Of a stretch of DNA of 38,507 bases, positions 3,652 to 26,806 are shown piece by piece. Source of the stretch: an uncultured Planctomycetota bacterium (lineage in GTDB: Bacteria; Planctomycetota; PUPC01); the NCBI GenBank assembly GCA_964466285.1, contig CAYXNI010000001.1, forward strand, positions 1 to 38,507, read 5' to 3'. Made by a program: the position numbers and the translations under genes. The notes below the pieces were generated by a model. That model was given only the letters and a program-made list of their open reading frames with translations. It was not told where the DNA came from and did not search any database. How positions within the stretch are numbered: position 1 is the stretch's first letter; each line of letters opens with the position of its first letter.

Positions 3652-3783
3652 ACAGATTGTGCGTACGAACCTCGCACGAGGCCAGATCGCAAATGCCTCG
3701 TTCGTGTCCGCGGCTCAGGGACACGACACTCAGCGGAATGCCGGCGAACGGCTGCCATGCTTCGGATTTCACCTTCGAGATGG

Positions 3784-3856: not shown

Positions 3857-4603
3857 ATGGTGAACGTGGCACAGGATCTGGCGGTTCAAAGTTATTGTTT
3901 CCGTGGCTTCAAGACGAACGAGGAGGTGATCGAACAGGTCAAGAGGATCGGGCTGAGCCGCGTTGAGTTGTGCGGGTGTCACGCGGACTTCGGCAATGAG
4001 AAGACGTTCGACGCGGTGGTCTCGCTGTACGAGAAGGCAGGCGTCCGGATCGTGAGCATCGGGGTGCAGGGATTCTCGAACAACGAGGCGGTGGAGACGA
4101 AGTGGTTCGAGTTTGTGAAGCGGGCGGGGGCGAAGCTGATCAGCGCGGATTTCGCGCCTGGGAACGTGCCGGACTGCTGCGGCACGGCCGTGAAGCTGGC
4201 GGAGAAGTACGATGTGAACATAGGCATTCACAACCACGGGGGCGGGCACTGGCTGGGGAGCCCGCAGATGCTGGGGCACGTGCTGGCGCACACGAGCCCG
4301 CGGATCGGGATGATGCTGGACACGGCGTGGATGATCGACTCTGCCGGCGATCCGTGCGCGTTTGCGGAGCAGTTCGCGGGCCGGCTGTACGGGGTGCACA
4401 TCAAGGATTTCGTGTATGACCGTGCGCGGCGGCCGAAGGACGTGGTGGTGGGTGCGGGGAATCTGAATCTGCCGAAGCTGGTGACGCTGCTCAAGGAGAA
4501 GGGGCCGGCAGGCTGTTGTCCGATCCTGGAGTACGAAGGGGACGTGGCCAATCCGGCTCCGGCGCTCACGGAGTGCGTGAAGGCGGTGAGGGCTGTGGCC
4601 TGA
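3857..4603 (+). CDS. sugar phosphate isomerase/epimerase (xylose isomerase-like TIM barrel family)
   Basis: ORF 3812-4603 trimmed to the ATG at 3857, preceded by AAAGGAG/GAGGAG. Pattern typical of AP-endonuclease-2/xylose-isomerase-like TIM barrels: LSRVELCG, IGIHNHGG, and YGVHIKDF followed by ILEYEG. Confidence 0.8.
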   Translation: MVNVAQDLAVQSYCFRGFKTNEEVIEQVKRIGLSRVELCGCHADFGNEKTFDAVVSLYEKAGVRIVSIGVQGFSNNEAVETKWFEFVKRAGAKLISADFAPGNVPDCCGTAVKLAEKYDVNIGIHNHGGGHWLGSPQMLGHVLAHTSPRIGMMLDTAWMIDSAGDPCAFAEQFAGRLYGVHIKDFVYDRARRPKDVVVGAGNLNLPKLVTLLKEKGPAGCCPILEYEGDVANPAPALTECVKAVRAVA

Positions 4604-6645: not shown

Positions 6646-7793
6646 CTGTTCGCACTCCTATCCAGACCGTTATAGAGCTCGGATGCCTTGTACCTGACGA
6701 ACAGCTCCTGGGCGATGACCTTGACGACTGCGGCGATGGGGACGGCGAAAAGGACGCCGAGGAATCCGAACAGGGTGCCGAAGACGAAGATGGCGAGGAT
6801 GACGATGACGGGGTGCACGCCGACGCGCTTGCCCATGATGTGCGGGGTGGTGAAGAGGCTGTCGACGGTGAGGCCGACGGCGAAGACCGCGGCGGCGGCC
6901 GCGGGGTGCAGGACGTCCTGGTGCTGGGCGAAGGTGAGGACGATGGCGGGGACCATGCCGGAGACGAGGGCGAAATAGGGGACGAATGCGCCGAGGCCGC
7001 CGATGATGCCGATGACGTACCAGAAGGGGGTTCCGACCAGGGCGAGGCCCGCGGTGAAGACGACGGTGTCGACGAGGACGACGATCATCTGGCCGCGGAA
7101 GAAGGACTTGAGGTTGGCGTCGATGTGGCCGGCGATTCGAAGGATTTCGTCCTTGTGGCGGAGCGGCAGCGCGTCCTTGACGCGGTCGCGGGCCCGGTCG
7201 ATATCGACGAGCAGGTAGACGGTGACCACGAAGAAGAGAAAGAACTGGAAGACCCAGAGGGCGGCGGAGAAGGTGCTGAAAAGGATGGTGTGGAGGGACT
7301 GTGTGACGGCGTCGGGAGCACCTTCCCGGGTGAGGAGGGTGGTGATGAGGCGGGAGACGATGAGCCAGCGTTCGTCCGGGGAGCTCTTGACCCAGGTCTC
7401 GATGCCCTTCTGCCATTCGGGCGGGAGGATCTGTCGGACGGTGTCGAATTTCTCGCTCTGCAGCCACTCTCTTGCGGCGAGGATGGCGTTGGGGATGGCG
7501 ACAAAGAGGGCGAGGCCGATCACGGCGGCGAACACGGTGACGAGGAGGCCGACGGACACCCGGCGGCCGATGGCAATGGGGCCGATACGGCGGCGCTCAA
7601 GCCAGTCGACGACGGGGTCGAAGATGTAGGCGGCGATGACGGCGAGGCAGAATGGGATGAGGACGCCGCGAATGACGTAGAGGACTCGGAGCCCGATGAA
7701 GATAAGGATGAGGAGCCCGATGAACCGGAGCCAGGGGTTCCGAAGGACGGCTTTCAGTCCGGTTTCGTGTGCGGGTGTTCCGCCGTTGTCCAC
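6642..7793 (-). CDS. AI-2E family transporter (PerM/UPF0118)
   Basis: 383 aa, about 8 TM segments, general PerM-like layout. GTG start preceded by GGAGAG. Its stop overlaps the serA ATG (ATGA at 6642-6645). Confidence 0.8.
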   Translation of the reverse strand: MDNGGTPAHETGLKAVLRNPWLRFIGLLILIFIGLRVLYVIRGVLIPFCLAVIAAYIFDPVVDWLERRRIGPIAIGRRVSVGLLVTVFAAVIGLALFVAIPNAILAAREWLQSEKFDTVRQILPPEWQKGIETWVKSSPDERWLIVSRLITTLLTREGAPDAVTQSLHTILFSTFSAALWVFQFFLFFVVTVYLLVDIDRARDRVKDALPLRHKDEILRIAGHIDANLKSFFRGQMIVVLVDTVVFTAGLALVGTPFWYVIGIIGGLGAFVPYFALVSGMVPAIVLTFAQHQDVLHPAAAAAVFAVGLTVDSLFTTPHIMGKRVGVHPVIVILAIFVFGTLFGFLGVLFAVPIAAVVKVIAQELFVRYKASELYNGLDRSANR

Positions 7794-12326: not shown

Positions 12327-12428
12327 GAAGACGGATGTAACCACGAAGGCACAAAGGCACCAAGGTGCACAAAGGCATGGACCGCGAAGACGGATCTGAC
12401 CACGAAGACACAAGGACGCCAAGGAACC
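12327..12428 (+). repeat. two tandem copies (59-nt period) of a gaagacggat...accacgaag-CACNAAGG repeat
   Basis: Copy 1 starts at 12327 and copy 2 at 12386. Octamer sub-repeat cacgaagg cacaaagg caccaagg..cacaaagg. It overlaps the 5' end of the GxxExxY ORF. Confidence 0.85.
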
Positions 12429-12829
12429 CGAAGACGAAGGGATACGAGCCGCTGCCGCCGCAGACGGAGTTCATCGCGAAGGAGGTTGTGGATGCCGCAA
12501 TGCACGTCCACAAGAAGCTGGGCCCCGGCCTGCTCGAATCAGTATACGAGGTGTGCCTGGCCCATGAGCTGAAGAAACGCCGTATCCCAGTGGAAACGCA
12601 GGTTGCTCTGCCCATTGTGTATGATGGAATTCAACTTGATGCTGGATACCGCATCGACATGCTGGTCCAGAAATGCATCATCGTCGAACTGAAAGCTGCC
12701 GAGGTGGCTACTCCTCTTTTTGAGGCCCAACTGCTTACGTACCTCAAGTTGACCGGACACAGGCTCGGCCTTCTGATCAACTTCAATGTCCCCTTGTTGA
12801 AGGACGGCATCAAGAGGCTCATTCTCTAG
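12377..12829 (+). CDS. GxxExxY family protein (PD-(D/E)XK-like small protein)
   Basis: The core matches the family pattern as I remember it: HKKLGPGLLESVYEVCLAHELKKRRI, then LPIVYDGIQLDAGYRIDMLV, IIVELKA, QLLTYLKLTGHRLGLLINFN and LKDGIKRLIL. Start uncertain (ATG 12377 or GTG 12365). GC is 47% on line 12601-12660. Confidence 0.85.
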   Translation: MDREDGSDHEDTRTPRNPKTKGYEPLPPQTEFIAKEVVDAAMHVHKKLGPGLLESVYEVCLAHELKKRRIPVETQVALPIVYDGIQLDAGYRIDMLVQKCIIVELKAAEVATPLFEAQLLTYLKLTGHRLGLLINFNVPLLKDGIKRLIL

Positions 12830-14088: not shown

Positions 14089-15792
14089 CTAGCCGCCGCC
14101 CATCTGCTCGAGGGCTCGGATCGCGCTGGCGCGGACGGCGGGCCGAGGGTCGAGCGCCGCCTTCTTCAGAGCGTCGACAATCTCGGGCGCCTTCAGGGCG
14201 TTGGCGAAATCGCAGGCGTCGGCGCTCGCCGGGCTCTTGGGATCGGTGATGACCTGGACGAGGGCTTGCTTTAGCGGCTCGGGGTGCTGCTGAACGGCGA
14301 GTTGCAGCGCGTTGAAGGCCTGGCTGCGGATGGTGCGGTCGGGGTCGCTCTGGAGCCCGAGCAAGGCAACGTACGCGTCGGACGCAGGAATGGAGCAAAG
14401 GACTTTCATTGCGACGAACCGCACCTGCCGCTCGTCGTCGAGCGCGGCCCGGACAACGGCCGCGAGGCTGTCCCGGCCGGGAAGCCCGCCCAGTGCGGCG
14501 ACGGCGGTGGCGCGGACGATGATGTCCTTGTCCTGGGCGGCGGTGAGAAGCGCTCGAGTGGCAGCCCCGTCGCCGAGCATGCCGAGCGCCCGGATGGCGG
14601 CGATGCGAGTCTGGGGGTCGGGGTCGGCCAGCGCGGGCTCGATGAGTTCGGCGGCGCCTTTGCTGTGCAGCCGGCCCAGCGCGGTGATGGCCGCGCGGCG
14701 GACCTCGGGCGCACTGTCCTTCAGGGCCCTGCGCAGCGCGGGCGTGGCCATGTCGCACTGGCCCGCCAGACCCAGCCCGAACGCGGCGCGCCATCGCAGT
14801 TCGGGGTTCGTTTCATTTTCGAGCGCCCACACCAGCGCCTCGACCGACTCGCGCGAGCGGAGCATGCCGATCAACTCGATTGTGCGCAGGCGGACCGGCT
14901 CGGGCGAGCCGTCGGCGAAATGCCTCGTAAGCAGCGTCACGGCGTAGGCCGGCCGCGCCATGTTCAGGGCGCTCGCCAGGTATTCGCGGACCGGGCAGGG
15001 ATCGAGCGTGAGGAAGTACTTGACCAGGGACTCGATGATCTCTTCCGCCACCTTGTCCTGAGCCCGAAGTGCTTCGAGTTCCTTCGTGCGGATGACAAGC
15101 ACGCGCGCTAGCCCGAGGGCGGCCGACTCGCGGAAGTCGGGCGGATACATTTCCGGCGGGTTGTTGAGGACGCGGGTCATCGCCTCAACGGCCCGGTGAT
15201 CGCGGTCGCCGACGCACACGATCACGGCGAGCGCCGCGCGCTGGACATCAGTCTCGCCGGGCGACTGCCCGCGGTAGGAGCCGCTCGGGGTCTCGATGAT
15301 CTTGAGGTACTGGCTCAGGATACTCTCGCCCAGCCCGCCGATGGCGTCCTCGATGAGCTCGGGAAACGTCAGCTCGACACCAGCATCGGCGAACGAGATT
15401 TTCTTGTCGTACCGCAGGACGGGACTGGGGCCGACGGCCTGGGAGTGCACCTGCAGGAGGACCGGGATCGCAGCCGGATCGTCGATCTCCCGGAGCGCCC
15501 ACACGGCCGCCACCTTCACGTCGATGATGTCGTTACGCTTCAGCACCGTCACCAGCGCGGGGACGGCCTCATCAAGTGCTGCGAGCCCGGCGAGGCCGAT
15601 TGCGTTGATTCGTTTCTCAAGCGAAAGCGACGCGTCCAGTATGGCCTGGACGGTGCTCTCCCGGGCCTCTTTCCCCAGGATCACGCGTGGGCGGCTGCTC
15701 TCGACGGCCGCGCCTTCGAGCGGGGCGGGGCGCTCGGCCCCGGGCGCACTGTGCGGCGCGCCAACCAGCATCGCGGCGGCAAGAAGAAGCAT
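14089..15792 (-). CDS. secreted HEAT-repeat (PBS-lyase HEAT-like) protein
   Basis: ORF 14089-15912 trimmed to the ATG at 15792 (signal-like MLLLAAAMLVGAP). An alternative GTG at 15819 overlaps the upstream stop (GTGA). Repeated motifs of the type D.D..VR..A..ALG run throughout. Confidence 0.75.
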   Translation of the reverse strand: MLLLAAAMLVGAPHSAPGAERPAPLEGAAVESSRPRVILGKEARESTVQAILDASLSLEKRINAIGLAGLAALDEAVPALVTVLKRNDIIDVKVAAVWALREIDDPAAIPVLLQVHSQAVGPSPVLRYDKKISFADAGVELTFPELIEDAIGGLGESILSQYLKIIETPSGSYRGQSPGETDVQRAALAVIVCVGDRDHRAVEAMTRVLNNPPEMYPPDFRESAALGLARVLVIRTKELEALRAQDKVAEEIIESLVKYFLTLDPCPVREYLASALNMARPAYAVTLLTRHFADGSPEPVRLRTIELIGMLRSRESVEALVWALENETNPELRWRAAFGLGLAGQCDMATPALRRALKDSAPEVRRAAITALGRLHSKGAAELIEPALADPDPQTRIAAIRALGMLGDGAATRALLTAAQDKDIIVRATAVAALGGLPGRDSLAAVVRAALDDERQVRFVAMKVLCSIPASDAYVALLGLQSDPDRTIRSQAFNALQLAVQQHPEPLKQALVQVITDPKSPASADACDFANALKAPEIVDALKKAALDPRPAVRASAIRALEQMGGG

Positions 15793-17146: not shown

Positions 17147-19045
17147 TCAGAAGGGGAGCCTGGGGCTGAACTCGCGCGCCCAGAGTTCGAAGCAAAGCAG
17201 CGTCCAGATGGGGTAGGAGCGGTCGGCGCGGCCGCTTGCGTGGTCGTCGAGCATCTGCCTGATTCTGTCGCGCGAGAAGACGTCGTTGAGGATGGTGCTG
17301 CTGCCGAGCAGAGTGTCGCGGGCGAATGGGGCGAGCTCGGTACGCAGCCAGCGGGCGATGGGGACGCCGAAGCCCATCTTGCCGCGCGAGTAAATCCTTT
17401 CGGGCAGCAGGTCGCGGAAGGCGTGGCGGAGGACGTATTTGCCGCGCGCGCCGTGGAGCTTGTGACGGGACGGGATGCGGAAGGCGAGCTCGATGAGCTT
17501 GTGGTCGAGCAGCGGGGCGCGGGTCTCGAGGCCGTGGGCCATCGTCGCGATGTCGATCTTGACGAGCGGGTCGTTGGGGAGGTAGACGGTGAGGTCGGCG
17601 AACATCGCGGCGGCCGCGGGGTCCTTGAGGCCGGCGCACCGGGCGTAGGCGTCTTCGAAGACGGCGGCGGAGTCGGGTCCGCCGGCGGCGTCGAGGAACG
17701 AGGCCCGGTAGAGGTCCTGCTTGTCATGCTCGGAGGAGTAGGCCAGCCACGCGGCGTGGCGCCGGGCCGGGGCGAGCTGAAGGGCGCCGAGCAGGAGGCG
17801 GGCGCGGGTGAGGGCGGCCTTGCGGTCGCGGCCGCGCGGCAGGACCGATCCGAGAAGTCCGATGAGTTTTCCGAACGAGGGGGCCAGGCGGTCGACCTGG
17901 CCGCAGGCGCGCGCGGCGAGGTGGCGGGGGTAGCCGCCGAAGGCCTCGTCGCCGCCGTCGCCGGTCAGAGCGACCTTCACGTGCCCGGCGGTCAGCTGCG
18001 CGAGGTAATACGCCGGGATGGCGGAGGGGTCGGCGAACGGCTCGCCGTATCGCCGGGCAAGCACGGGGAGGACGTCGACGGCGCTGGGGGTGACGAGGAA
18101 CTCGGTATGCCTGGTGCCGAACTGTTCGGCCGCGATGCGGGCGAAGCCGAGCTCGTCGTATGCCGGGTCAATAGCTCCGGCGGGGTCTCCGAACCCGATG
18201 CTGAACGTCTGGACCGGCCCGGCGAGGCGGCTCATGAGGCCGACGACGATCGAGGAGTCGATGCCGCCGCTCAGGAATGCGCCGAGCGGGACGTCGGAGA
18301 CGAGGCGGGTCTGGACGGCGCTCTCGACGGCCGCGCGGACCTGGCCGGCGGCGTCGTCGAGCGAAATGTCCTGCGGCTCGGGGACAAGGTCCCAGTACCG
18401 CGAGAGCGTCGGCTTCCCGTGCTCGTGGACGAGGATGTGGGCGGGCGGGAGTTTCCGGACGCCCTGATAGATGGTGAGAGGAAACGGCACGGCCAGGTAG
18501 GAGAGGTAGTGGTGGAGCGCCTCGGGGTCGAGGACTCGCGGGACGGCATCGAGCGAGAGCAGCGCCGCGAGCTCGGACGCGAAGGCGAAGAGTCCGCCGC
18601 CTTCGTAGTAGACAAGGGGCTTCTCGCCGAGCCGGTCGCGCGCGAGGAGCAGGCGCTCGGCGTTCGCATCCCAGAGTGCGAACGCGAACATCCCGTCGAG
18701 GTGCTTGACGCAGCCGGCGCCGTGGTCTTCGTAGAGGTGCAGGATGACTTCGTTGTCGCTGCTCGTCCGGAAGCGGTGGCCGCGGGATTCGAGGCCGGAG
18801 CGCAGGTCCCGGAAGTTGTAGATCTCGCCGTTGCAGACGAGCAGGACGGAGCCGTCCTCGTTCGCAAGCGGCTGTCGGCCGGTTGCAAGGTCGATGATGC
18901 TGAGGCGTGCGTGGCCGAGGCGGCACGGGCCGGAGACGGCCTTGCCGGACTCGTCGGGCCCGCGGTGCCGGAGGCGCTCGATCATGGCGGCGACGACGGC
19001 ATCTGCGTCAGGTCTGGCTGTCAGGATTCCGGCGATTCCGCACAC
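17147..19045 (-). CDS. asnB: asparagine synthase (glutamine-hydrolysing)
   Basis: ORF 17147-19087 trimmed to the GTG at 19045, which makes the nucleophile Cys residue 2 (V/M-CGIAG). GGAGGG lies upstream. SGGIDSS PP-loop motif present. Confidence 0.92.
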   Translation of the reverse strand: MCGIAGILTARPDADAVVAAMIERLRHRGPDESGKAVSGPCRLGHARLSIIDLATGRQPLANEDGSVLLVCNGEIYNFRDLRSGLESRGHRFRTSSDNEVILHLYEDHGAGCVKHLDGMFAFALWDANAERLLLARDRLGEKPLVYYEGGGLFAFASELAALLSLDAVPRVLDPEALHHYLSYLAVPFPLTIYQGVRKLPPAHILVHEHGKPTLSRYWDLVPEPQDISLDDAAGQVRAAVESAVQTRLVSDVPLGAFLSGGIDSSIVVGLMSRLAGPVQTFSIGFGDPAGAIDPAYDELGFARIAAEQFGTRHTEFLVTPSAVDVLPVLARRYGEPFADPSAIPAYYLAQLTAGHVKVALTGDGGDEAFGGYPRHLAARACGQVDRLAPSFGKLIGLLGSVLPRGRDRKAALTRARLLLGALQLAPARRHAAWLAYSSEHDKQDLYRASFLDAAGGPDSAAVFEDAYARCAGLKDPAAAAMFADLTVYLPNDPLVKIDIATMAHGLETRAPLLDHKLIELAFRIPSRHKLHGARGKYVLRHAFRDLLPERIYSRGKMGFGVPIARWLRTELAPFARDTLLGSSTILNDVFSRDRIRQMLDDHASGRADRSYPIWTLLCFELWAREFSPRLPF

Positions 19046-19087
19046 GGGGCAGTCCCTCCGGCCGGCGAACGTTCGCGACGCGTGCAC

Positions 19088-19116
19088 ATTGTAGTGGAAG
19101 CGCGATACGCGGGCAA
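19088..19116 (-). promoter_or_regulatory. sigma70-type promoter TTGCCC-N17-TACAAT for asnB
   Basis: The minus strand reads TTGCCC (19116-19111), a 17-nt spacer, then TACAAT (19093-19088), about 43 nt upstream of the GTG at 19045. Confidence 0.5.
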
Positions 19117-19146
19117 GCGGCGGTCGGCGGGAAGAAGACGGGCTTT

Positions 19147-19250
19147 ACCACGAAGCCACAAAGTCACGAGGAAAATCATCCTTTGTGGGCCTTTGTGGAT
19201 CTTTGTGTCTTGGTGCCTTTGTGGTTGTGTCTTCCTTCACTTGCCTTCGT
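19147..19250. repeat. solo locus of the CACNAAGG/CTTTGTG repeat family
   Basis: accacgaagccacaaag (forward orientation) is followed by ctttgtgggc ctttgtggat ctttgtgtct tggtgcctttgtgg. The reverse complement of 19201-19235 contains cacaaaggcaccaag, identical to 12351-12365. It overlaps the stop of the 19237-20205 gene (LHEGK*). Confidence 0.85.
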
Positions 19251-20205
19251 GCAGGGTGAACTCGTCATAGACCTGGCCGTCGGCGGCCATAGTCTTGCCG
19301 GTCACTTTGGCCCCGTCGACGGTGATGAGTGTGAGCATGAAGACAGGCTTGGGCAAGGTCTTTTCGCCGGCGGGGCCTCGGAGGACGGCTTGCTGGCCGA
19401 CCATGCCGTAGCTTATGTCGTCCCCGATGGCCTCGCTGATGCGGTTGAGGCTGTAGACGCCGGCGCCGGCAACGCCCTGGATGATATAGTTGACGCCATC
19501 GCGCTTCGTGCGGTAGTAGATGTGGTCGTGGCCGGTGAAGTGTGCGACAACGCCGTACTTCTGGCAGAGCCGAGTGAGGGCGGTGGGCTCGTTCGGGCAC
19601 TCGGCTTTGCTCTTGCTTCCCACGGTATACGGCGGGCAATGCTGCCAGACGAAGAGCAGCTTGCCGGCCTTCTGCCCCGCAGCGAGCTGCTGCTCGAGCA
19701 GCTCGAGCTCGGCGGGGCCGGGGACGCTGTGATCGGGGGCGTCGACGCCGATGAAGCGGGCGTTTCGGAAGTCGAAGGAGAAGTGGCGGGAGTCGATGCC
19801 GTAGAAGGCGGTAAAGTACTTGAGGGCGTCCGCGCCGCTGCCTTCGTGGTTTCCGAAGCAGGGCCAGCAGGGCGTCTTGCGGGCGAACTTGCCGATCTGC
19901 TGCTCCAGCCGATCGTATTCCTTGGCGCCGGGGCTGGCGACCATGTCGCCGGTGAGGATGACGAATGTGGGGGCAAGGCTGTCGCACTTGGCGACGAGGG
20001 GGTCAAATCCCCCTCCGCCCTTTACGTCGCCCATGACGATGAAGGTGTACTGATCGGTGGAGGTCTTCTTCTCGACCTCAGCCGTGAGCGGGCGCGGGTC
20101 ATAGGGTTTTTCGGGCGGAAAGGCCAGCGCGGGCACGGATGCGACGAGCAGAATGACGAGCACGACCGGCAACGCGAACCGCAACGGCACAAGGCGTCTG
20201 ATCAC
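19237..20205 (-). CDS. secreted calcineurin-like metallophosphoesterase
   Basis: ORF trimmed to the GTG at 20205, preceded by AAGGAG with a 7-nt spacer. Signal peptide, then the motifs FIVMGDVKGG, ILTGDM, GNHEG and GHDH. Confidence 0.8.
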   Translation of the reverse strand: MIRRLVPLRFALPVVLVILLVASVPALAFPPEKPYDPRPLTAEVEKKTSTDQYTFIVMGDVKGGGGFDPLVAKCDSLAPTFVILTGDMVASPGAKEYDRLEQQIGKFARKTPCWPCFGNHEGSGADALKYFTAFYGIDSRHFSFDFRNARFIGVDAPDHSVPGPAELELLEQQLAAGQKAGKLLFVWQHCPPYTVGSKSKAECPNEPTALTRLCQKYGVVAHFTGHDHIYYRTKRDGVNYIIQGVAGAGVYSLNRISEAIGDDISYGMVGQQAVLRGPAGEKTLPKPVFMLTLITVDGAKVTGKTMAADGQVYDEFTLHEGK

Positions 20206-20393
20206 GTCAGTTCTCCTTTTGCTAATGGCTGGGACCACACCTGGTTTGTAGGGCAGGCGCCCATTCTTATCGTTGTGTCGTTGGTGCCCTTCGGGTCAAG
20301 TGCACGCCGGTCGGTCTCATTTCCCGTCACTGAGCACGTACGGATCGATGATCTCGCCGTCGGCGACCGAGAAGCTGTCCAGAAGTAAGGTTA

Positions 20394-20459
20394 TCAATGG
20401 TTCGGCTTATCGCTCAGGTATTCGACCATCCGGCCCAGGCCGACGCGGTCCTCTTGCAT
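20394..20459 (-). pseudogene. displaced glyQS 3'-end fragment, copy 3 (MQEDRVGLGRMVEYLSDKPNH*)
   Basis: By hand alignment, 48/66 nt are identical to copy 2. It shares catccggcccaggccgacgcggtcct with copy 2. No upstream coding continuation; it abuts the hicB stop. Confidence 0.7.
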
Positions 20460-20462
20460 AGA

Positions 20463-20690
20463 TCAGCGGGACACCTGGTAGATCAGGGGCCGGTAGCTGG
20501 GCGGCGGGATCGGCTTGCCCGCGTCGCGCGCCGCCCGAAGCCAGGCTTCCTTCGCACGCTCGACCTCGGCCAAGGCCGCTTCCGGTGTCTGGCCAAAGGC
20601 CGAACAGGACTCAAGGTCAGGGATGTCGGCGATGTATCCGCCGTCTTCTTCGCTGTAGAAGATGTTGATGTGGTAGTCAGTCATGTTCAT
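20463..20690 (-). CDS. hicB: HicB-family antitoxin (UPF0150 fold)
   Basis: YHINIFYSEEDGGYIADIPDLESCSAFGQTPEAALAEVERAKEAW is the classic HicB N-domain pattern. The ATG overlaps the hicA stop (ATGA). The second ATG at 20684 has better SD spacing (GGAGGA). Confidence 0.8.
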   Translation of the reverse strand: MNMTDYHINIFYSEEDGGYIADIPDLESCSAFGQTPEAALAEVERAKEAWLRAARDAGKPIPPPSYRPLIYQVSR

Positions 20691-20938
20691 TCCTCCAACT
20701 GTAGATTATAGCGCTCAATGAGGCGAAGGAACTGACGAATCTGGTACGGCTTCGCCTCTCCATTTACATTTTGCAGGTTCACCAGTTCCGGAATGCCGGG
20801 ATGGGTGAAAATGTGATGGCTCCCGCTGACCCGTGCGCTGCGGAAGCCAAAGCCCTCGACCAGACTCACCGCGTCGTTGAAGGCGACATTCTGGAAGGAC
20901 CCATCGGCAAGCCTACGAAGCAATTTCCTCCGGTTCAC
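20687..20938 (-). CDS. hicA: HicA-family toxin (YcfA-like mRNA interferase)
   Basis: 83 aa. FGFRSARVSGSHHIFTHPG, then GEAKPYQIRQFLRLIE, matches the HicA pattern. GTG start. Canonical hicA-then-hicB order. Confidence 0.8.
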   Translation of the reverse strand: MNRRKLLRRLADGSFQNVAFNDAVSLVEGFGFRSARVSGSHHIFTHPGIPELVNLQNVNGEAKPYQIRQFLRLIERYNLQLEE

Positions 20939-20976
20939 GTTGCACCACCCCCTGGCTGTTTCGCGTCAATCCCTGT

Positions 20977-21057
20977 CTACAATCCGAACTTGTCGGTCAG
21001 ATATTCCAGCATCCGGCCCAGGCCGACGCGGTCCTGCTGCATGGTGTCGCGGTGGCG
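20977..21057 (-). pseudogene. displaced glyQS 3'-end fragment, copy 2 (RHRDTMQQDRVGLGRMLEYLTDKFGL*)
   Basis: 81 nt, the same length as the live end at 23215-23295. By hand alignment 66/81 nt are identical, and the first 33 nt (cgccaccgcgacaccatgcagcaggaccgcgtc) are identical. It has its own stop and no upstream glyQS sequence. Confidence 0.75.
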
Positions 21058-21064
21058 TTCCTGG

Positions 21065-21451
21065 TCAGGAGTCTGTTTCGCGCGTACGGCACTTCGCCTT
21101 ATCTTCAGCGACCCGGCCCACCGCGGCGTCATCGACCCGGACGCCGCGTTTCAAGACATAGGCCGCAAAGCTGGCCGGTTCGCAATGCTCGAGCTGATCG
21201 GCGGAGAAAATGTGAAGTTCGATGTCGTCGCCGACCTCCTGCTGCACGCGCACGGCGGCTTGCGCCCGGCGATGCATGTCCCATGTCTCGGCGCCGCGCA
21301 CAAACACGCCGATATCTATGTCGCTGTAGGCATCGGCTCGACCTTCTATATGAGATCCGAAGAGGAATGCGGCAACAACGGTCGACTCGCGACGCAATGC
21401 CGCCACCGCCTCGGCCGCCTTGGCCTTTACCTCATCAAGCCGGACGGCCAT
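21065..21451 (-). CDS. MNT-type nucleotidyltransferase (minimal NTase, antitoxin-like)
   Basis: 128 aa. The FLFGSHIEGRADAYSDIDIGVF motif (GS-x9-11-DxD) is typical of MntA-like minimal nucleotidyltransferases. No intact HEPN partner is present. Confidence 0.8.
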   Translation of the reverse strand: MAVRLDEVKAKAAEAVAALRRESTVVAAFLFGSHIEGRADAYSDIDIGVFVRGAETWDMHRRAQAAVRVQQEVGDDIELHIFSADQLEHCEPASFAAYVLKRGVRVDDAAVGRVAEDKAKCRTRETDS

Positions 21452-21548
21452 TCGATGATCTCCTCTGTAGCACGGAGCGAGTGCTCCGCCTGCTTCACAT
21501 CAATCGCGAGCTTGAAAGGTGTTGATATGCTAGTTCAGGGCCCTTCGC

Positions 21549-21824
21549 CTACTCAATGATGCCCTTCGCCCGAAGGATGGCAACGTAACCATCCCTCTTG
21601 AGGGGGCACTTCACGAGGTCTCTGAAGTCATCCATGCCGAGGTGTACTTGGCTTCGGATTTTGTCGGAAACGTGCCCCGGTACATCGCCCTTTCCGTGCG
21701 AACACCTCAGCATCAGGATTTTCCGGCCTTCGTGTATGAACCACCCGATCTTGTGTCCGGTGCTCCTGCTTTCAATCCCCAGTTTCTGAAAAATCGTATC
21801 GACGTCGGATTTCTTCAGTTGCAC
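21549..21824 (-). CDS. divergent HicA-like small protein (putative toxin), ORF-C of the three-gene operon
   Basis: ORF 21549-21869 trimmed to the GTG at 21824, which overlaps the upstream stop (GTGCAACTGA). The layout LKKSDVDTIFQKLGIE..STGHKIGWF...LRCSHGKGDVPGHVSDKIRSQ resembles HicA/YcfA, but with TGH instead of GSH and an extra C-terminal segment. The assignment is tentative. Confidence 0.5.
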   Translation of the reverse strand: MQLKKSDVDTIFQKLGIESRSTGHKIGWFIHEGRKILMLRCSHGKGDVPGHVSDKIRSQVHLGMDDFRDLVKCPLKRDGYVAILRAKGIIE

Positions 21825-22402
21825 GTACCGTGAGTCTCGCAAACATTTCGTTGAAGGTGGGCAAGCCATCGGCGCGGCAGCGGCCCAAGTTCCCCGGAAG
21901 GGGTCTTCAAGTCCTGATATAGCTCGGCGACGACATCCTTGAGATCCGCTATGGCTTCTGACTCACAGTCCCCGTGGCCGTAAGCCTCCAGATCGGGGAT
22001 GTATGCGACGACAGACCCTTCGGATTCTTCAACGGTAACGTATAGCGGTTCTTTTAGAAGCAGACTGTCTGAGTTCAACGAAGAGATTGCAACTACTCTG
22101 GAAACGCGAGCCTTGCTCTCTTCGACGGCTGTCACCCGGACTTCGAGCGCAGATACTCGTTCGGACAAGGACCTGAGCGCTGTGTCTTGAGCGGAGATAA
22201 CCGCATGCAAAATGTTGCCAAGCAGTGCTTGCGCTATCCCAGCAGCCCTGACCTGCCTTTTTTGAGCTACTCTCTCAGCACCGCGCACAATTGGCCGACC
22301 GGGCGCGGCTTCTCTCCATTGCACGGCCACTGTTGCCTCTGCGGGCGCATGCTCCGAGAAATGCAAGTCCAAGGCGTGGAGGCTGTCAGGGCAGCTAGCC
22401 AT
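21815..22402 (-). CDS. coiled-coil protein with a HicB/UPF0150-like C-terminal domain (putative antitoxin), ORF-B
   Basis: ORF 21815-22441 trimmed to the ATG at 22402, which overlaps the ORF-A stop (ATGGCTAG). The C-terminus YVTVEESEGSVVAYIPDLEAYGHGDCESEAIADLKDVVAELYQDL is HicB-like. The N-terminal part is coiled-coil-like (DTALRSLSERVSALEVRVTAVEESKARV). Confidence 0.55.
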   Translation of the reverse strand: MASCPDSLHALDLHFSEHAPAEATVAVQWREAAPGRPIVRGAERVAQKRQVRAAGIAQALLGNILHAVISAQDTALRSLSERVSALEVRVTAVEESKARVSRVVAISSLNSDSLLLKEPLYVTVEESEGSVVAYIPDLEAYGHGDCESEAIADLKDVVAELYQDLKTPSGELGPLPRRWLAHLQRNVCETHGTCN

Positions 22403-23063
22403 CTTTCTTTCCCGCAGATGAAGGATTGCGCACGAATTCACGTACTACAGCTTGCGCCCGCTGAATCAACTGCTCCAACGTCTCTTTCTTCCGCGGCCAG
22501 GTCAGCTTGAGCACGGTTCGTACGTTGAGCGTAGTCTCGTTCACCGCCTCGACTATCATGTCCCTGACCGTTTCGGCTCCCCGCAAGCGGAAGCCGCTCA
22601 AGTAAACCGGCGTGTATTTTCCCGCGCTCGGCGGGGCTACTGGGGGTAGCGCGGGCGCAAGCAGTGCAAGGTTCATGTTCAACTCCATGCGCAGCGTAAT
22701 CGGAAGTTGCTCTGGAGCATCCGCAAGAACCAGTTGAAATCGACGCTGAACCTCTGTTGCCTTGACTGCTGAGTCTGCACGTTCTTCGTGCTGCTTGTCT
22801 ACGCCAATAACAGCGGTCTTCTCAGAAGGGGAGGCAACCGCAAACAGATGCAGGTGGTGCGCAAGACCGCGCCGGCTATACGTGTGACAGATTACGGGCT
22901 TTAACCGCCCGACGTGGGACTGACCCACCGGCAGGCCTGCCTCCCGAAGCGCGGATATGGCCCTATCAGATATACTAAACTCAAGCCTAAAACCTTCACA
23001 TCCGCACACGGCCAGATTTGGAAGCCGCAGAACATCTTTAGCAGGTGCCACACGCTTTGGCAT
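22395..23063 (-). CDS. hypothetical protein with no recognisable motif, ORF-A
   Basis: 222 aa from the ATG at 23063 (the ORF track's alternative is TTG at 23120). It is the first gene of the overlapping operon. GC is 50% on line 22681-22740. Confidence 0.55.
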   Translation of the reverse strand: MPKRVAPAKDVLRLPNLAVCGCEGFRLEFSISDRAISALREAGLPVGQSHVGRLKPVICHTYSRRGLAHHLHLFAVASPSEKTAVIGVDKQHEERADSAVKATEVQRRFQLVLADAPEQLPITLRMELNMNLALLAPALPPVAPPSAGKYTPVYLSGFRLRGAETVRDMIVEAVNETTLNVRTVLKLTWPRKKETLEQLIQRAQAVVREFVRNPSSAGKKDG

Positions 23064-23146
23064 TGCTAATCCGCCACAAGAGAGGCCAATCTTTGGCAGT
23101 GACCCGCAGAACCCACTCAACGGTTCCCGGTGAACTCATCAAACAG

Positions 23147-23175
23147 ATAGTACACACTCCGCGAGAGAAATGCAA
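23147..23175 (-). promoter_or_regulatory. candidate promoter TTGCAT-N17-TACTAT for the three-gene operon
   Basis: The minus strand reads TTGCAT (23175-23170), a 17-nt spacer, then TACTAT (23152-23147). It lies 40-70 nt downstream of the glyQS stop. Confidence 0.35.
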
Positions 23176-23214
23176 ACACTTAGTTCGCGGCTGTCTGGAC
23201 GTGGTCGAGACACC

Positions 23215-24600
23215 CTACGCTCGCAACTTGTCCACCAGGTACTCCACTATCCGGTCGAGGGGGACGCGGTCCTGCTGCATGGTGTCGCGGTGGCGGACGG
23301 TGGCGGCCCTGTCGTTCAGGCTGTCGAAATCGACCGTGACGCAGTACGGCGTTCCGATCTCGTCGTGGCGGCGGTAGCGCTTGCCGATGGAGCCGAGGAT
23401 GTCGTGCATGGCGGGCCAGCGCTTCCGGACGTCGTCGAACAGGGGCTTGGAGACGGCGATGAGCTCTTCCTTCTTCGAGAGCGGGAAGATGGCGGCCTTG
23501 CACGGGGCGACGGCGTTGTTCAGGCCGAGGACGACGCGCTTCTCGCCGCGGACTTCCTCCTCGCGGTAGGCGTCGCACAGGATGGCCAGGATCGCGCGGT
23601 TGAGGCCGAACGACGGCTCGACGACGTAGGGGATGTACTTTTCGCGGGTGATGGGGTCTTCGTATTCGAGCTTTTCGCCGGAGGCCTGGGAGTGCTGCTT
23701 GAGGTCGTAGTCGGTTCGTGAGGCGATGCCCTGGAGCTCGCCCCACTTGTCCCACGGGAACAGGTATTCGAGGTCGACGGTGCGGTTCGAGTAGTGCGAG
23801 AGCTCTGCCTTGTCGTGTTCGCGCCAGCGGAGTTTCGCGGGGCTGACGCCGATGGACTGGTAGAACTCCCACGACTCTTTCTGCCAGTGGCCGAAGTGTT
23901 CGAGCTCGGTGCCGGGCTTGACGAAGTACTCGATCTCCATCTGCTCGAACTCGCGCGTGCGGAAGACGAAGTTGCCGGTGGTGATTTCGTTGCGGAAGGC
24001 CTTGCCGATCTGGGCGATGCCGAAGGGCACGCGCATCCGCATCGACTGCTGGACGAGGACGAAGTTGTAGAAGATGCCCTGGGCGGTCTCGGGGCGGAGG
24101 TAGGCCTCGTTGTTGGCGTCCTCGATGGGGCCGACGTGGGTCTTGAACATGCAGTTGAACTTGCGGGCGTCGCCCAGCTCGCCGCCGCAGGTGGGGCAGA
24201 CGATGTGGTTCTCGCGGAGCAGGCGGGAGATCTCATCGAGCGAATGGCCGCTGAAGTCCTTGCCGAGCTTGTCGGCGAGCAGGTTGTCGCCGCGGAAGCG
24301 CTCGCGGCATTTCTTGCAGTCGACGAGCGGGTCGTTGAAGTTCTCGACGTGGCCGGAGGCCTGCCAGACCTTTGGGTTGACGATGATGGAGGAGTCGAGC
24401 CCGACCATGTCCTCGCGGCCGCGGACGAAGCGGTTCCACCAGATGTCCTTGACGTTGCGGGCGATCTCGACGCCGAGCGGGCCGAAGTCCCACTGATTCG
24501 CGAAGCCCTGGTAGATTTCGGAGCCGGGGAAGATGATGCCGCGGCGCTTGCAGAGGGACTTGATGTTCTTGAGGGCTTCGGACTCTTTCTCCTGGGCCAT
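23215..24600 (-). CDS. glyQS: glycine--tRNA ligase (homodimeric GlyQS type)
   Basis: ORF 23215-25047 trimmed to the in-frame ATG at 24600 (MAQEKESEALKNIKSLCKRRGIIFPGSEIYQGFANQWDFGPLGVE, the typical N-terminus). 461 aa with class II motifs. The upstream extension is low-complexity and overlaps the permease gene start region. Confidence 0.95.
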   Translation of the reverse strand: MAQEKESEALKNIKSLCKRRGIIFPGSEIYQGFANQWDFGPLGVEIARNVKDIWWNRFVRGREDMVGLDSSIIVNPKVWQASGHVENFNDPLVDCKKCRERFRGDNLLADKLGKDFSGHSLDEISRLLRENHIVCPTCGGELGDARKFNCMFKTHVGPIEDANNEAYLRPETAQGIFYNFVLVQQSMRMRVPFGIAQIGKAFRNEITTGNFVFRTREFEQMEIEYFVKPGTELEHFGHWQKESWEFYQSIGVSPAKLRWREHDKAELSHYSNRTVDLEYLFPWDKWGELQGIASRTDYDLKQHSQASGEKLEYEDPITREKYIPYVVEPSFGLNRAILAILCDAYREEEVRGEKRVVLGLNNAVAPCKAAIFPLSKKEELIAVSKPLFDDVRKRWPAMHDILGSIGKRYRRHDEIGTPYCVTVDFDSLNDRAATVRHRDTMQQDRVPLDRIVEYLVDKLRA

Positions 24601-24708
24601 GACTGTTCCTTTGCTTACACAGAGGTAATAATGGCGCCCTTCTCTCGCCGCAGAAGACGCGGAGACCGCGGAGCGCGGTGCAGGCCGGCGGAGCGCCGTG
24701 CGGGCCGG

Positions 24709-24737
24709 ATTATACCGGGGCGCTTGCCGGGTTTCAA
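24709..24737 (-). promoter_or_regulatory. sigma70-type promoter TTGAAA-N17-TATAAT for glyQS
   Basis: The minus strand reads TTGAAA (24737-24732), a 17-nt spacer, then a perfect TATAAT (24714-24709). This leaves a leader of about 100 nt. Confidence 0.55.
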
Positions 24738-24783
24738 GCGAAGGGGCCGCTTGAGTGAGCTTTTTCAGAGTGCGCTTTTTGTG

Positions 24784-24812
24784 TTGACACGACTCCGACG
24801 CCCGCGGAGAAT
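24784..24812 (+). promoter_or_regulatory. candidate promoter TTGACA-N17-GAGAAT for the permease gene
   Basis: A perfect -35 at 24784-24789 and a weaker -10 at 24807-24812. It is back-to-back with the glyQS promoter (47 nt between the -35 boxes). Confidence 0.3.
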
Positions 24813-24973
24813 ATGCGAGGGCTGGAGTGCCTGAAATGCGGGTGTGCGCATTTTCGGGTGATCTACACAAGCCCCTGGCCAGGCGCTCAACGGCTCCTTG
24901 GCATTGCCGGCCGCTTTGAGCGTCGGTCAACCCCCAGGCGCGTTGGCGCCGTCGTTCTGAAAAGGGGACTTCA

Positions 24974-26806
24974 TTGCAACTGAAGAGACGGCTAGGGTTG
25001 ATCCATGTTTTCTGCATTGCATCAGGGGCGATGATCAGCTCCGGCATTTTCGTGCTGCCGGGGCTGGCCTACACGAAAGCTGGCCCGGCCGTGGTGTTCT
25101 CGTACCTCCTGGCCGGGGCGCTCGCAGCCACAGGCATGCTGAGCACTGCCGAGCTTGCCACGGCCATGCCGAAGGCGGGAAGCGACTATTTTTCCATCAC
25201 CCGGAGCATAGGTCCGGCGTTTGGCATGATTGCGGGGGTTCTCAACTGGGTGTCGTTCTCGCTCAAGAGTGCTTTTGCCCTCGTGGGAATGGCCGCGGTG
25301 GTTCGGCTATTGGCTCCCATCGACATGCGCCTCACAGGGGTGGTCCTCGGCGTAGTCTTTGTAGGCATCAACCTCGTGGGGGTCAAGGAGGCGGCGCGCC
25401 TTCAGGTGGCCCTTGTTCTGGGGCTCATGGCGCTTATGCTGCTATACGTTTTCTACGGGTTGCCTGCGGTCAATCTACAGCAGTACGAGCCTTTCGTCCC
25501 ACACGGGTTCGGCGCTGTGTTCGCCACTGCCGGGTTCGTCTTTGTTTCATACGGCGGGCTGCTGAAGGTGGCAAGCGTGGCTGAGGAGGTGCGGAACCCC
25601 GGGCGCATCCTCCCCGCCGGGATGATCCTGTCGCTTGTCGTGGTGGGGCTCTGCTACGCCCTGATGGTCGGCGTGACAGTGGGGGTTCTGAGTGCCGAGC
25701 GACTGCGCACAACCCTTACGCCGATCACCGATTGTGCTGTCATTCTGATGGGGCGCGGGGGCGGGATTGCCCTGGCTGTCGCGGCCTCCCTGGCGTTCCT
25801 TACAACGGCCAACGCGGGAATCATGGCGGGTTCCCGTTACTTGCTGGCCCTGAGCCGCGACGGCATGCTGCCCGAGTCGGTTGGAAAGGTAGGGGCAAGG
25901 TTCCACACCCCGCATGTCGCGATTCTCGTGACCGGCGGTCTCGTGATTACACCGCTCTTCCTCGATCTCCGCATTCTCGTGGAATCTGCGTCCATTGGGC
26001 TGATCTTCACGAACATGTGCTCGCTCCTCGCGGTGATCGTGCTGCGGGAAAGCAGGTTGCAGAACTACCGACCCACCTTCCGAGCGCCACTCTATCCGTG
26101 GCTGCAGATCGCGGGCTTGCTCGGCTTCGCCTTCGTACTTCTGGAGATGGGCGAAGATGCATTTCTGATCAGTGCGACGCTGGCGGTCATCGGGTTCGGT
26201 ATCTACTGGTTTTACGGACGCCCCCGCGTCCAGCATGAATCTGCCCTCCTCCACCTTGTCCGGCGCCTCACTGCCCGAGAACTGGTCACCAGCACTCTGG
26301 AAGCGGAACTCAAGGAGATTATCCGCGAGCGGGACGCAATCATTGTAGACCGCTTCGATGAAATGACCGAGAAATGCCCGGTTCTTGATCTGAAGAGCAA
26401 GATGACACGGGATGCGTTCTTCTCGAAAGCTGCGGCGGTCATGGCTCCCCGAATGGAAGTGCCCGCGGAGAACTTGGTGCGCCTCTTGATTGCCCGCGAA
26501 GAAGAGAGCTCGACCGTGATCGCACCACACCTGGCAATCCCGCACATCATTGTGGAGGACTCGGCCCCGTTTGAGATGCTCATCGCGCGGTGCACACCGG
26601 GCGTCTATTTCAGTGAGGAGGCCCCCGAGGTGCGTGCTGTGATTCTGTTGGCGGGGTCAAGACAAGAACGCAACTTCCATTTGCGATGTCTGGCAGCTAT
26701 CGCGCAGGTCGCGCAGGCCAGGGATTTCGAGTCGCGCTGGCTCACAGCCCGGGGGGAACAGGATATTCGACACCTCTTCGTTCTGAGTGAACGCCAGCGT
26801 GAATGA
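24974..26806 (+). CDS. APC-superfamily amino-acid permease fused to a C-terminal PTS EIIA(Ntr/type-2)-like domain
   Basis: 610 aa with a TTG start. The N-terminal ~430 aa hold about 12 TM segments and begin with an APC-like FCIASGAMISSGIFVLPG. The C-terminus LLIAREEESSTVIAPHLAIPHIIVED...RAVILLAGS...HLRCLAAIAQV matches the EIIA type-2 pattern, including the conserved His. Confidence 0.85.
   Translation: MQLKRRLGLIHVFCIASGAMISSGIFVLPGLAYTKAGPAVVFSYLLAGALAATGMLSTAELATAMPKAGSDYFSITRSIGPAFGMIAGVLNWVSFSLKSAFALVGMAAVVRLLAPIDMRLTGVVLGVVFVGINLVGVKEAARLQVALVLGLMALMLLYVFYGLPAVNLQQYEPFVPHGFGAVFATAGFVFVSYGGLLKVASVAEEVRNPGRILPAGMILSLVVVGLCYALMVGVTVGVLSAERLRTTLTPITDCAVILMGRGGGIALAVAASLAFLTTANAGIMAGSRYLLALSRDGMLPESVGKVGARFHTPHVAILVTGGLVITPLFLDLRILVESASIGLIFTNMCSLLAVIVLRESRLQNYRPTFRAPLYPWLQIAGLLGFAFVLLEMGEDAFLISATLAVIGFGIYWFYGRPRVQHESALLHLVRRLTARELVTSTLEAELKEIIRERDAIIVDRFDEMTEKCPVLDLKSKMTRDAFFSKAAAVMAPRMEVPAENLVRLLIAREEESSTVIAPHLAIPHIIVEDSAPFEMLIARCTPGVYFSEEAPEVRAVILLAGSRQERNFHLRCLAAIAQVAQARDFESRWLTARGEQDIRHLFVLSERQRE

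Follow-up and report, generated by a model that had tools for sequence, protein, structure and literature searches.

Why should the end of a glycyl-tRNA synthetase gene stand three times in a row on a bacterial chromosome, and how did the genes between the copies come to be there? The question is raised by a stretch of 38,507 nucleotides from an uncultured Planctomycetota bacterium (contig CAYXNI010000001.1 of assembly GCA_964466285.1; referred to below as the window), in which the synthetase gene, glyQS, is followed by two further copies of its own 3′ end that bracket two small packets of genes. Phage 21 and e14 insert in the 3′ end of icd in Escherichia coli, supply a diverged in-frame end and displace the native end as a relic direct repeat. 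A preliminary description, made from the letters of the window alone, had proposed that two successive integrations of the same type, each with a replacement end, occurred at glyQS. The analysis described here supports one half of that proposal and not the other. Foreign DNA has very probably been inserted serially into the 3′ end of glyQS with replacement of the end of the gene, as is suggested by empty sites and other fillings in relatives, by independent arrays, by the low GC content of the cargo at third codon positions (GC3) and by the rare codons of the present tail. As to the catalyst, we lean tentatively towards a site-specific recombinase that is encoded elsewhere and acts in trans, at a short core, on cassettes that have no integrase of their own.

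Three copies of the glyQS 3′ end

A repeat finder returned one family of repeats, three direct copies of the glyQS 3′ end (copies 1 to 3; Table 1), and no other credible family in the whole 38.5-kb window. The unit that is copied is the last 26 codons of glyQS together with the stop codon. Copies 1 and 2 are identical at 66 of 81 nucleotides (81%), with a block of 33 nt that is 100% identical at the 5′-most edge in the orientation of the gene (23263–23295 and 21025–21057). The repeat finder drew the third copy over 81 nt (20394–20474, at 65%); the real similarity covers 20394–20459, where 48 of 66 nucleotides agree with copy 2. Between adjacent copies the perfectly identical blocks measure 33 nt and 25 nt. 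BLASTN within the window gives expect (E) values of 5e-19 for copy 1 against copy 2, 8e-14 for copy 2 against copy 3 (54 nt at 87%) and 4e-8 for copy 1 against copy 3. The three copies of the preliminary description are therefore confirmed by both programs, and its hand counts, including the identical first 33 nt, were reproduced exactly. It was also correct in its translations and in stating that each copy has its own stop codon and that copies 2 and 3 are not preceded by glyQS sequence. All three copies keep the reading frame, the stop codon is at the identical position in each and the similarity among them ends exactly there.

That the resemblance is due to chance, that the arrangement is an artefact of assembly or that copies 2 and 3 lie inside real genes can be considered effectively refuted. 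Across the window, no unrelated ungapped match to copy 1 exceeds 42/81, against the E values of 5e-19 to 4e-8 given above. An independent ENA contig, L081, is colinear with the window and 99.8% identical to it over 9,070 nt, and since the two assemblies agree the arrangement is not an assembly artefact. Copy 2 does sit within a 51-codon open reading frame (ORF), as would be expected if it were part of a gene, but this ORF has no Pfam match and was left uncalled by the gene caller in the near-identical L081. The pattern also recurs in other lineages, as described below.

The three tails differ from one another by 19–31%. The residues that they retain are those conserved across glycyl-tRNA synthetases (GlyRS), namely L, EYL and DK, which argues that every tail has a past as a functioning GlyRS end, not as a drifting duplicate. 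The glyQS ORF is intact, with the anticodon-binding domain matched up to residue 457 of 461, and copy 1 would appear to serve as an alternative end, in frame, with which the gene remains functional. Its composition is unlike that of the gene that it completes. The body of glyQS has a GC3 of 0.944, within a range of 0.85–0.94 for the flanking host genes (0.85 for a metallophosphoesterase gene and 0.90 for the asparagine synthase gene asnB), and all three tails lie below the gene body. The sole ATA, the sole TTG and one of the two CGA codons of glyQS all fall downstream of the identical block, within its final 12 codons, so that these 12 codons hold three of the five rare codons of the 462-codon gene (hypergeometric p = 3.3e-4). 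Judged in this way the codon usage of the current tail is foreign, and its last 16 codons (23215–23262) would have come in with the packet that now follows them. The preliminary description had taken copy 3 for the native end. This is not borne out, given that the GC3 of all three tails is below that of the gene body, and an alignment of the GlyRS C-termini of relatives, which it had suggested as a means of finding the ancestral end, was ambiguous and singled out no tail.

Genes carried between the copies

Packet A (21058–23214), between copies 1 and 2, consists of a 540-nt leader, the genes g93, g195 and g91, and an orphan gene for an MNT-type nucleotidyltransferase. Packet B (20460–20976), between copies 2 and 3, consists of hicA and a hicB-like gene. 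All six genes are on the strand of glyQS. Their GC3 is 0.58–0.82, compared with 0.85–0.94 in the flanking host genes, and the overall GC content dips to 53–60% over the two packets. The gene content is thus as first described, with two reservations: what had been called a three-gene operon has no recognisable function, and the MNT gene stands without its usual partner.

The three genes of packet A, called in L081 at 93, 195 and 91 aa, gave no match in Pfam, NCBIfam or PADLOC. The C-terminal ~100 residues of g195 belong to a large uncharacterised family (820 matches), while for g91 only four homologues were found, of which the two that are named come from Acidobacteria and Aminicenantes; its AlphaFold model has a low confidence (pLDDT 64) and no match in the PDB. 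The leader may be non-coding or may be the N-terminal part of a 241-codon ORF with a TTG start, for which there is no homologue outside its own contig family and in which there is no trace of an integrase remnant. The MNT protein scores 36.6 bits against Polbeta and 39 bits against the NCBIfam model MntA, the latter below the cutoff of 60. It is 47–65% identical to the MNT proteins at the same locus in L087, L092, L098 and L102. No HEPN partner is present in the window, though relatives carry the pair, and the window does not therefore hold a type VII HEPN/MNT system. Between the stop codon of the MNT gene and the left edge of copy 2 there are 7 nt.

In packet B the gene for a HicA domain adjoins, with an overlap of 4 nt, that for a HicB-like antitoxin, the arrangement of a type II HicAB module. 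Copy 3 has its left edge 3 nt beyond the stop codon of the hicB-like gene, and homologues of the product of that gene, 77–89% identical, are encoded at this locus also in L097, L085/L100 and L087. By these matches the cargo appears to be mostly toxin–antitoxin-like. A search of 19000–25200 against Rfam gave no match.

The site in related genomes

The locus was compared in 27 contigs of relatives (L081 to L107) representing 13 GlyRS lineages, with GlyRS identities of 75–92%. GlyRS homologues at 71–84% identity were found only in metagenomes and metagenome-assembled genomes, and those that are named are all from Planctomycetota. The conserved frame in these relatives is glyQS, a variable interval and the asparagine synthase gene. 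In three lineages (L091/L101, L106 and L107; five contigs) the interval is empty, with 53–110 nt between glyQS and asnB. Elsewhere it is occupied by a GH4 glycosidase gene (L082–84 and L095), three metabolic-type genes (L094), a conserved gene for a 311-aa protein (L099) or a gene for a 408-aa protein with a metallophosphoesterase gene (L104/105). Toxin–antitoxin genes fill it in others: a hicB-like gene 8 nt past the glyQS stop codon together with a DNA methyltransferase gene (L085/86/100, with no hicA in the interval in L085/L100), a hicB whose product is 89% identical to that of the window (L097), and HEPN/MNT (L092 and L098). The conserved gene of L099 occurs in L103 too (336 aa), preceded immediately after the glyQS stop codon by an MNT 3′ remnant. 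Only the C-terminal third of the MNT protein is left there (residues 83–123; 1136–1258 of the oriented contig), and the remnant is, to judge from what has been kept, a cassette decayed by deletion.

The triplication is thus not common to all relatives, which show both empty and alternatively filled sites. With this, and with the results on chance and on longer ORFs given above, none of the three findings that the preliminary description had named as refuting its proposal was made. It had recommended looking for empty sites, with glyQS followed directly by the metallophosphoesterase gene; the sites exist, but the conserved flank is asnB. The metallophosphoesterase gene was rejected as a flank because it is not kept at this position in relatives. 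No counterpart of it is found in their intervals, those in L092 and L104 being unrelated to it at E < 1e-4.

Two other lineages carry arrays. In four assemblies (L087–L090), with a GlyRS 80% identical to that of the window, four tails define three bracketed cassettes and a fourth, in the order glyQS, HEPN/MNT, tail 2, an HSDR_N-like gene, tail 3, a DUF4258 gene with a hicB-like gene and two small genes, tail 4, HEPN/MNT and asnB. Tail 2 of L087 extends over 100 nt at 94%. In L102 the order is glyQS, HEPN/MNT, tail 2 and two more genes, the second being the conserved gene for a protein of ~306 aa. The three array lineages are separate in the GlyRS tree, where every one of them is paired with a sister that has no array: L082 for the window, L107, with an empty site, for L087, and L099 for L102 (92% identical). 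In L087, tail 1 and the start of the HEPN/MNT that follows it are 90% identical over 317 nt to tail 4 and the start of its own HEPN/MNT, which indicates that a tail moves together with the cargo gene-distal to it. All five unrelated types of cargo are oriented like glyQS. Among the matches listed, 71 glyQS loci of other phyla (≤ 56% identity) included no convincing downstream copy of the tail, two giving marginal matches (E = 0.004), and the pattern would seem to be specific to this clade of Planctomycetota.

At 14762–14822 of L087, tail 4 has upstream of it 35 nt left over from a HEPN 3′ end and an MNT start. They are joined to the glyQS core at a microhomology, which suggests that an MNT gene has been deleted there by short-homology recombination.

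How the packets may have entered

On the reading that we favour, the region just past glyQS would be a hot spot at which insertions recur in a single clade of uncultured Planctomycetota. Foreign packets of small size, presumably as circular intermediates, would enter by reciprocal recombination within the last ~21–30 codons of glyQS, centred on the conserved ...ATG-SAG-CAG-GAC-CGC-GTC... (M-E/Q-Q-D-R-V). A site-specific recombinase would be expected to cross over at one fixed position within ...GGACCGCGTC.... Each packet would bring its own in-frame gene end, through the stop codon, so that the synthetase would stay intact while the old end was pushed downstream as a relic. At least two such events would be needed in the window. 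The hicAB genes would have come first, leaving copy 3 as a relic, and the second event would have brought the three genes of unknown function and the MNT gene, leaving copy 2, with copy 1 as the end in use. This order, from copy 3 as the oldest to copy 1 as the newest, is plausible on the condition that the functional end is always where new DNA comes in. The packets would be integrase-less cassettes, resembling integron cassettes or the cis-mobilizable elements (CIMEs) discussed below, and the recombinase would be encoded at another place in the genome or by a visiting element.

The events are insertions of the reciprocal-recombination type, and the stretch (A/G)AGCAGGACCGCGTC is common to all the relic copies. 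These copies have their left edges at −30, −27, −22, −21 and −21 codons, and at about −21 in L102, with four of the six starting within one codon of the same ATG, and in this coincidence the edges look more like a defined site than like random joins. The hicAB and HEPN/MNT cassettes are also compact in all three lineages, with the stop codon of the tail 38–70 nt before the first gene and the last stop codon 0–7 nt before the next copy. Documented cases of this architecture appear almost always to be made by an integrase (PMC5704250, PMC4701971, PMC3146451). The predominance of toxin–antitoxin cargo can be understood if DNA between direct repeats is easily lost unless its loss kills the cell; this would fit any of the mechanisms weighed here.

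A number of results weigh against such a recombinase. No integrase, transposase or recombinase gene was found in the 38.5-kb window, a point on which the preliminary description was right, and none inside any array or filled site of the 13 lineages. Occupants bearing a tyrosine or serine integrase, for which it had recommended a search, were absent from the glyQS site in every lineage sampled, and with no integrase in ~9 cassettes, insertion mediated by an integrase as in phage 21 and e14 is not established. Patterns made from the core and tail had no match in viral contigs and BLASTN of the region of the packets had none in plasmid and phage collections. The element-side flanks of the relic copies have no common motif, including any arm motif, and the dyad at the core is weak (6/7 arms in L087 and 4/7 in the window). 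A dif-like core or strong dyad is absent, as is an attC-like hairpin, the copies forming only a weak stem of 8 pairs (−10.8 kcal/mol) with no covariation support. In L092, L085/L100 and L097, HEPN/MNT or hicB follows directly on glyQS without a second tail, and the last cassette of L087 has no distal tail; decayed copies of the tail were sought in L085, in L092 and after the last L087 cassette, and none was found. Homologous recombination, moreover, does act on these repeats, as shown by the homogenised tails of L087 and its one junction fused at a microhomology.

This last point bears on the explanation that competes most directly with an unlinked recombinase, namely that insertion was driven by homology with no dedicated enzyme, which we consider possible though somewhat doubtful. 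It could have followed either of two routes. A circle looped out of a donor array might recombine by a single RecA crossover in the ~25–33-nt stretch kept identical by codon bias, or a linear donor anchored by glyQS homology might be joined illegitimately within the last ~30 codons of the recipient (homology-facilitated illegitimate recombination). Either route would place the donor tail first, the cargo next and last, as a relic, the tail that the recipient had. The identical blocks of 33 and 25 nt are about the minimum for homologous recombination, and this 33-mer recurs at 100% identity in L097, a diverged lineage, consistent with conservation through codon bias. In L087 the tails, together with the 5′ part of HEPN next to them, have been homogenised, with the remainder of the cassettes only 63–67% identical at the protein level, which is what gene conversion would produce, and the copy-4 junction of L087, where the start of MNT is fused to the core at GATGG(G/A)GCAGG, is of the kind expected from short homologies. 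The lack of an integrase at the site in 13 lineages agrees with it, as do the variable left edges of the relics (−30 to −21 codons) and the sites filled by toxin–antitoxin genes without a second tail (L092, L085 and L098), where the junctions would have fallen outside the tail. It accounts less well for the four of six relics that start at nearly the same ATG. Stretches of 25–33 nt amid ~30% divergence recombine inefficiently, yet ~8 events would be needed. We know of no natural competence in this clade, and almost all documented cases of such an architecture are mediated by an integrase.

It is distinctly unlikely that the packets are what is left of full-size elements of the phage 21/e14 type, which would have lost the integrase gene next to attP and kept the toxin–antitoxin genes. 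The substitute 3′ end and displaced native end do match those elements at icd, and they match the CIMEs formed when integrative and conjugative elements (ICEs) or integrative and mobilizable elements (IMEs) decay (PMC5704250). Toxin–antitoxin genes resist deletion, the geneless 540-nt leader of packet A could be debris and decay of a cassette by deletion is seen in L103. However, neither an integrase gene nor a fragment of one remains in ~9 cassettes of three array lineages, no intact relative was seen at the site or in viral contigs, and independent random deletions would be unlikely to leave compact cassettes in three lineages. Tandem duplication in situ, starting inside the glyQS tail, with the genes between the copies later diverging or being replaced and no DNA entering through the tail, is more improbable still. 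A duplication from −27 codons past the downstream gene would yield exactly a tail, a gene and a partial tail; HEPN/MNT occurs twice in L087, and HEPN/MNT and hicB are at the locus in so many lineages that they could be ancestral residents. Against this, the cargo between tails is unrelated (three genes of unknown function and MNT as opposed to hicAB, and four different contents in L087), the two HEPN/MNT sets of L087 share only 63–67% of their protein sequence, and sister lineages have empty sites. The tails, moreover, are 19–31% apart and yet under GlyRS constraint, with foreign codon usage in the current one.

Relation to known systems

As at icd, insertion here is within the 3′ coding end of an essential gene and is bounded by direct repeats. 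Phage 21 and e14 differ in being prophages of 15–40 kb with their own tyrosine integrase next to attP, whereas the units at glyQS are 0.5–2.2 kb and have no integrase; in the clade of the window they are also stacked two to four deep and carry only cargo of the toxin–antitoxin type. CIMEs and the tandem accretion seen with ICESt1 and ICESt3 at fda provide a closer parallel, with units that lack an integrase, are flanked by att-like repeats taking in the target gene's end and are arranged in tandem at one site (PMC5704250). The packets, bounded by tail copies in the manner of attL and attR and lacking a recombinase, share this organisation. CIMEs, however, are decayed ICEs or IMEs that have integrase-bearing kin at the same site, and none was found here in a limited sample of 27 contigs and the viral contigs; the glyQS units are also far smaller and are all oriented as the target gene.

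In Dehalococcoides, many islands stand in tandem at ssrA, each ending in a direct repeat of the 3′ end of the gene, and 15 have no integration module (PMC3146451). They differ from the glyQS packets in that the target is an RNA gene, the repeat is 20 bp, about half have the serine integrase DsiB, reductive dehalogenase genes form the cargo and the sizes run from kilobases to tens of kilobases (PMC3146451). The 3′ end of a tRNA synthetase gene had been thought an unusual target, but there is a precedent in lysS of Streptococcus, a site-specific target of ICEs with short direct repeats; these are full ICEs with tyrosine integrases and repeats of 13–17 bp, and do not form cassette arrays (PMC4701971). 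The pdif (dif) modules of Acinetobacter are likewise small, recombinase-less, serial and often of toxin–antitoxin type, and are moved by XerC/D encoded elsewhere (PMC6449649, PMC13141974). Their sites are 28-bp XerC–spacer–XerD sequences in alternating orientation on plasmids, in contrast to the direct, chromosomal coding tails of 66–100 nt found here.

With integrons the arrays share compact, apparently promoterless cassettes in one orientation, one recombination site for each and a fixed point of entry. Toxin–antitoxin cassettes are common in integrons. The window, on the other hand, has no intI, attI or Pc and no fold of the attC type, and the site is a functional gene end. One might propose an integron-like system of a new type, in which the coding tail of glyQS would be the recombination site and would provide both a safeguard of gene integrity and a read-through promoter for promoterless, integrase-less cassettes exchanged among related Planctomycetota by an unlinked recombinase, though we think this unlikely. 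The array is more simply described as compact, integrase-less toxin–antitoxin cassettes in the orientation of glyQS that are accreted at its coding end in uncultured Planctomycetota, the principle, that of integrase-less accretion at gene 3′ ends, being a known one.

The locus thus adds a case in which integrase-less packets build up at one chromosomal site, with the coding end of an essential tRNA synthetase gene as the landing pad. Each arrival must rebuild the end of glyQS, and only addictive cargo, of the toxin–antitoxin kind, would persist. Three lineages with arrays in a little-studied clade of Planctomycetota, together with empty sites in sister lineages, offer a natural system in which a dedicated recombinase can be set against short-homology recombination, and which bears also on the spread of toxin–antitoxin genes in uncultured bacteria. 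For annotation, it is a caution that a housekeeping protein can owe its C-terminus to foreign DNA.

Features of the window and minor observations

The features of the locus are collected in Table 1.

Table 1. Features of the glyQS locus in the window, with the evidence for each.
Feature	Position	Strand	Evidence
glyQS, class II glycyl-tRNA synthetase, 461 aa	23215–24600	−	Pfam tRNA-synt_2b and HGTP_anticodon
Copy 1, functional glyQS tail, 26 codons and stop	23215–23295	−	Repeat finder and alignment
Packet A leader, non-coding or N-terminal part of 241-codon TTG ORF	22677–23214	−	ORF and homology search
g93, cargo gene, 93 aa as called in L081, no family match	22395–22676	−	Pfam, NCBIfam, PADLOC
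g195, cargo gene, no recognised function	21815–22402	−	L081 gene call
g91, cargo gene, no recognised function	21549–21824	−	L081 gene call, homology search
Orphan MNT-type nucleotidyltransferase (antitoxin half of HEPN/MNT)	21065–21451	−	Pfam Polbeta/NTP_transf_2
Copy 2, displaced glyQS tail (RHRDTMQQDRVGLGRMLEYLTDKFGL, then stop)	20977–21057	−	Repeat finder, translation, alignment
hicA toxin gene, packet B	20687–20938	−	Pfam HicA_toxin, 36.6 bits (cutoff 27)
hicB-like antitoxin gene, packet B	20463–20690	−	UPF0150, 27.0 bits, and HicB_lk_antitox, 23.8 bits, both just under cutoff
Copy 3, displaced glyQS tail, shortest and most diverged (MQEDRVGLGRMVEYLSDKPNH, then stop)	20394–20459	−	Repeat finder, translation, alignment
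Metallophosphoesterase gene, right-hand neighbour of array, host-like GC3 of 0.85	19237–20238	−	Pfam, GC3
Asparagine synthase gene (asnB-type), flanks the variable interval on the right, conserved in relatives	17147–19087	−	Comparison with relatives

The start of glyQS is placed at MAQEKE (24600) by alignment with 17 relatives. A 610-codon ORF that reaches 25047 is an artefact. About 110 nt upstream of the start is a strong sigma-70-like promoter match (24709–24737, minus strand; TTGAAA, a 17-nt spacer and TATAAT; 11/12), which, if active, could drive read-through into the cassettes that lie in the same direction. A weak terminator-like hairpin (23172–23188) is present just past the glyQS stop codon, within the leader of packet A. 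The metallophosphoesterase gene adjoining copy 3 encodes a signal-peptide-like N-terminus.

In four other lineages, the hicB-like genes of the glyQS–asnB interval are at 4007–4198 in L085, 4776–4967 in L100 (oriented), 1585–1809 in L097 (oriented) and 14195–14419 in L087. Genes for a resolvase, a large serine recombinase of 638 aa and a type I restriction HsdR lie at 373–3911 in L087/L088, 6–10 kb upstream of glyQS, with a perfect 53-nt direct repeat (3683–3735 and 3859–3911) past the large serine recombinase gene. In L107 an intergenic repeat of 118 nt, 82% identical, is found upstream of a metallophosphoesterase gene (1864–1980) and upstream of glyQS (7057–7172).

No tRNA genes were found in the window. 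The rest of it is ordinary core chromosome, with RadA-like, SerA, RibF, RmuC, FtsK and BacA genes among others. Between AMMECR1 and RmuC host genes with a GC3 of ~0.88 there is an ORF of the PDDEXK_3 nuclease family (12365–12829, plus strand) with a GC3 of 0.70; no flanking repeat was found, and the ORF may be a separate small insertion.

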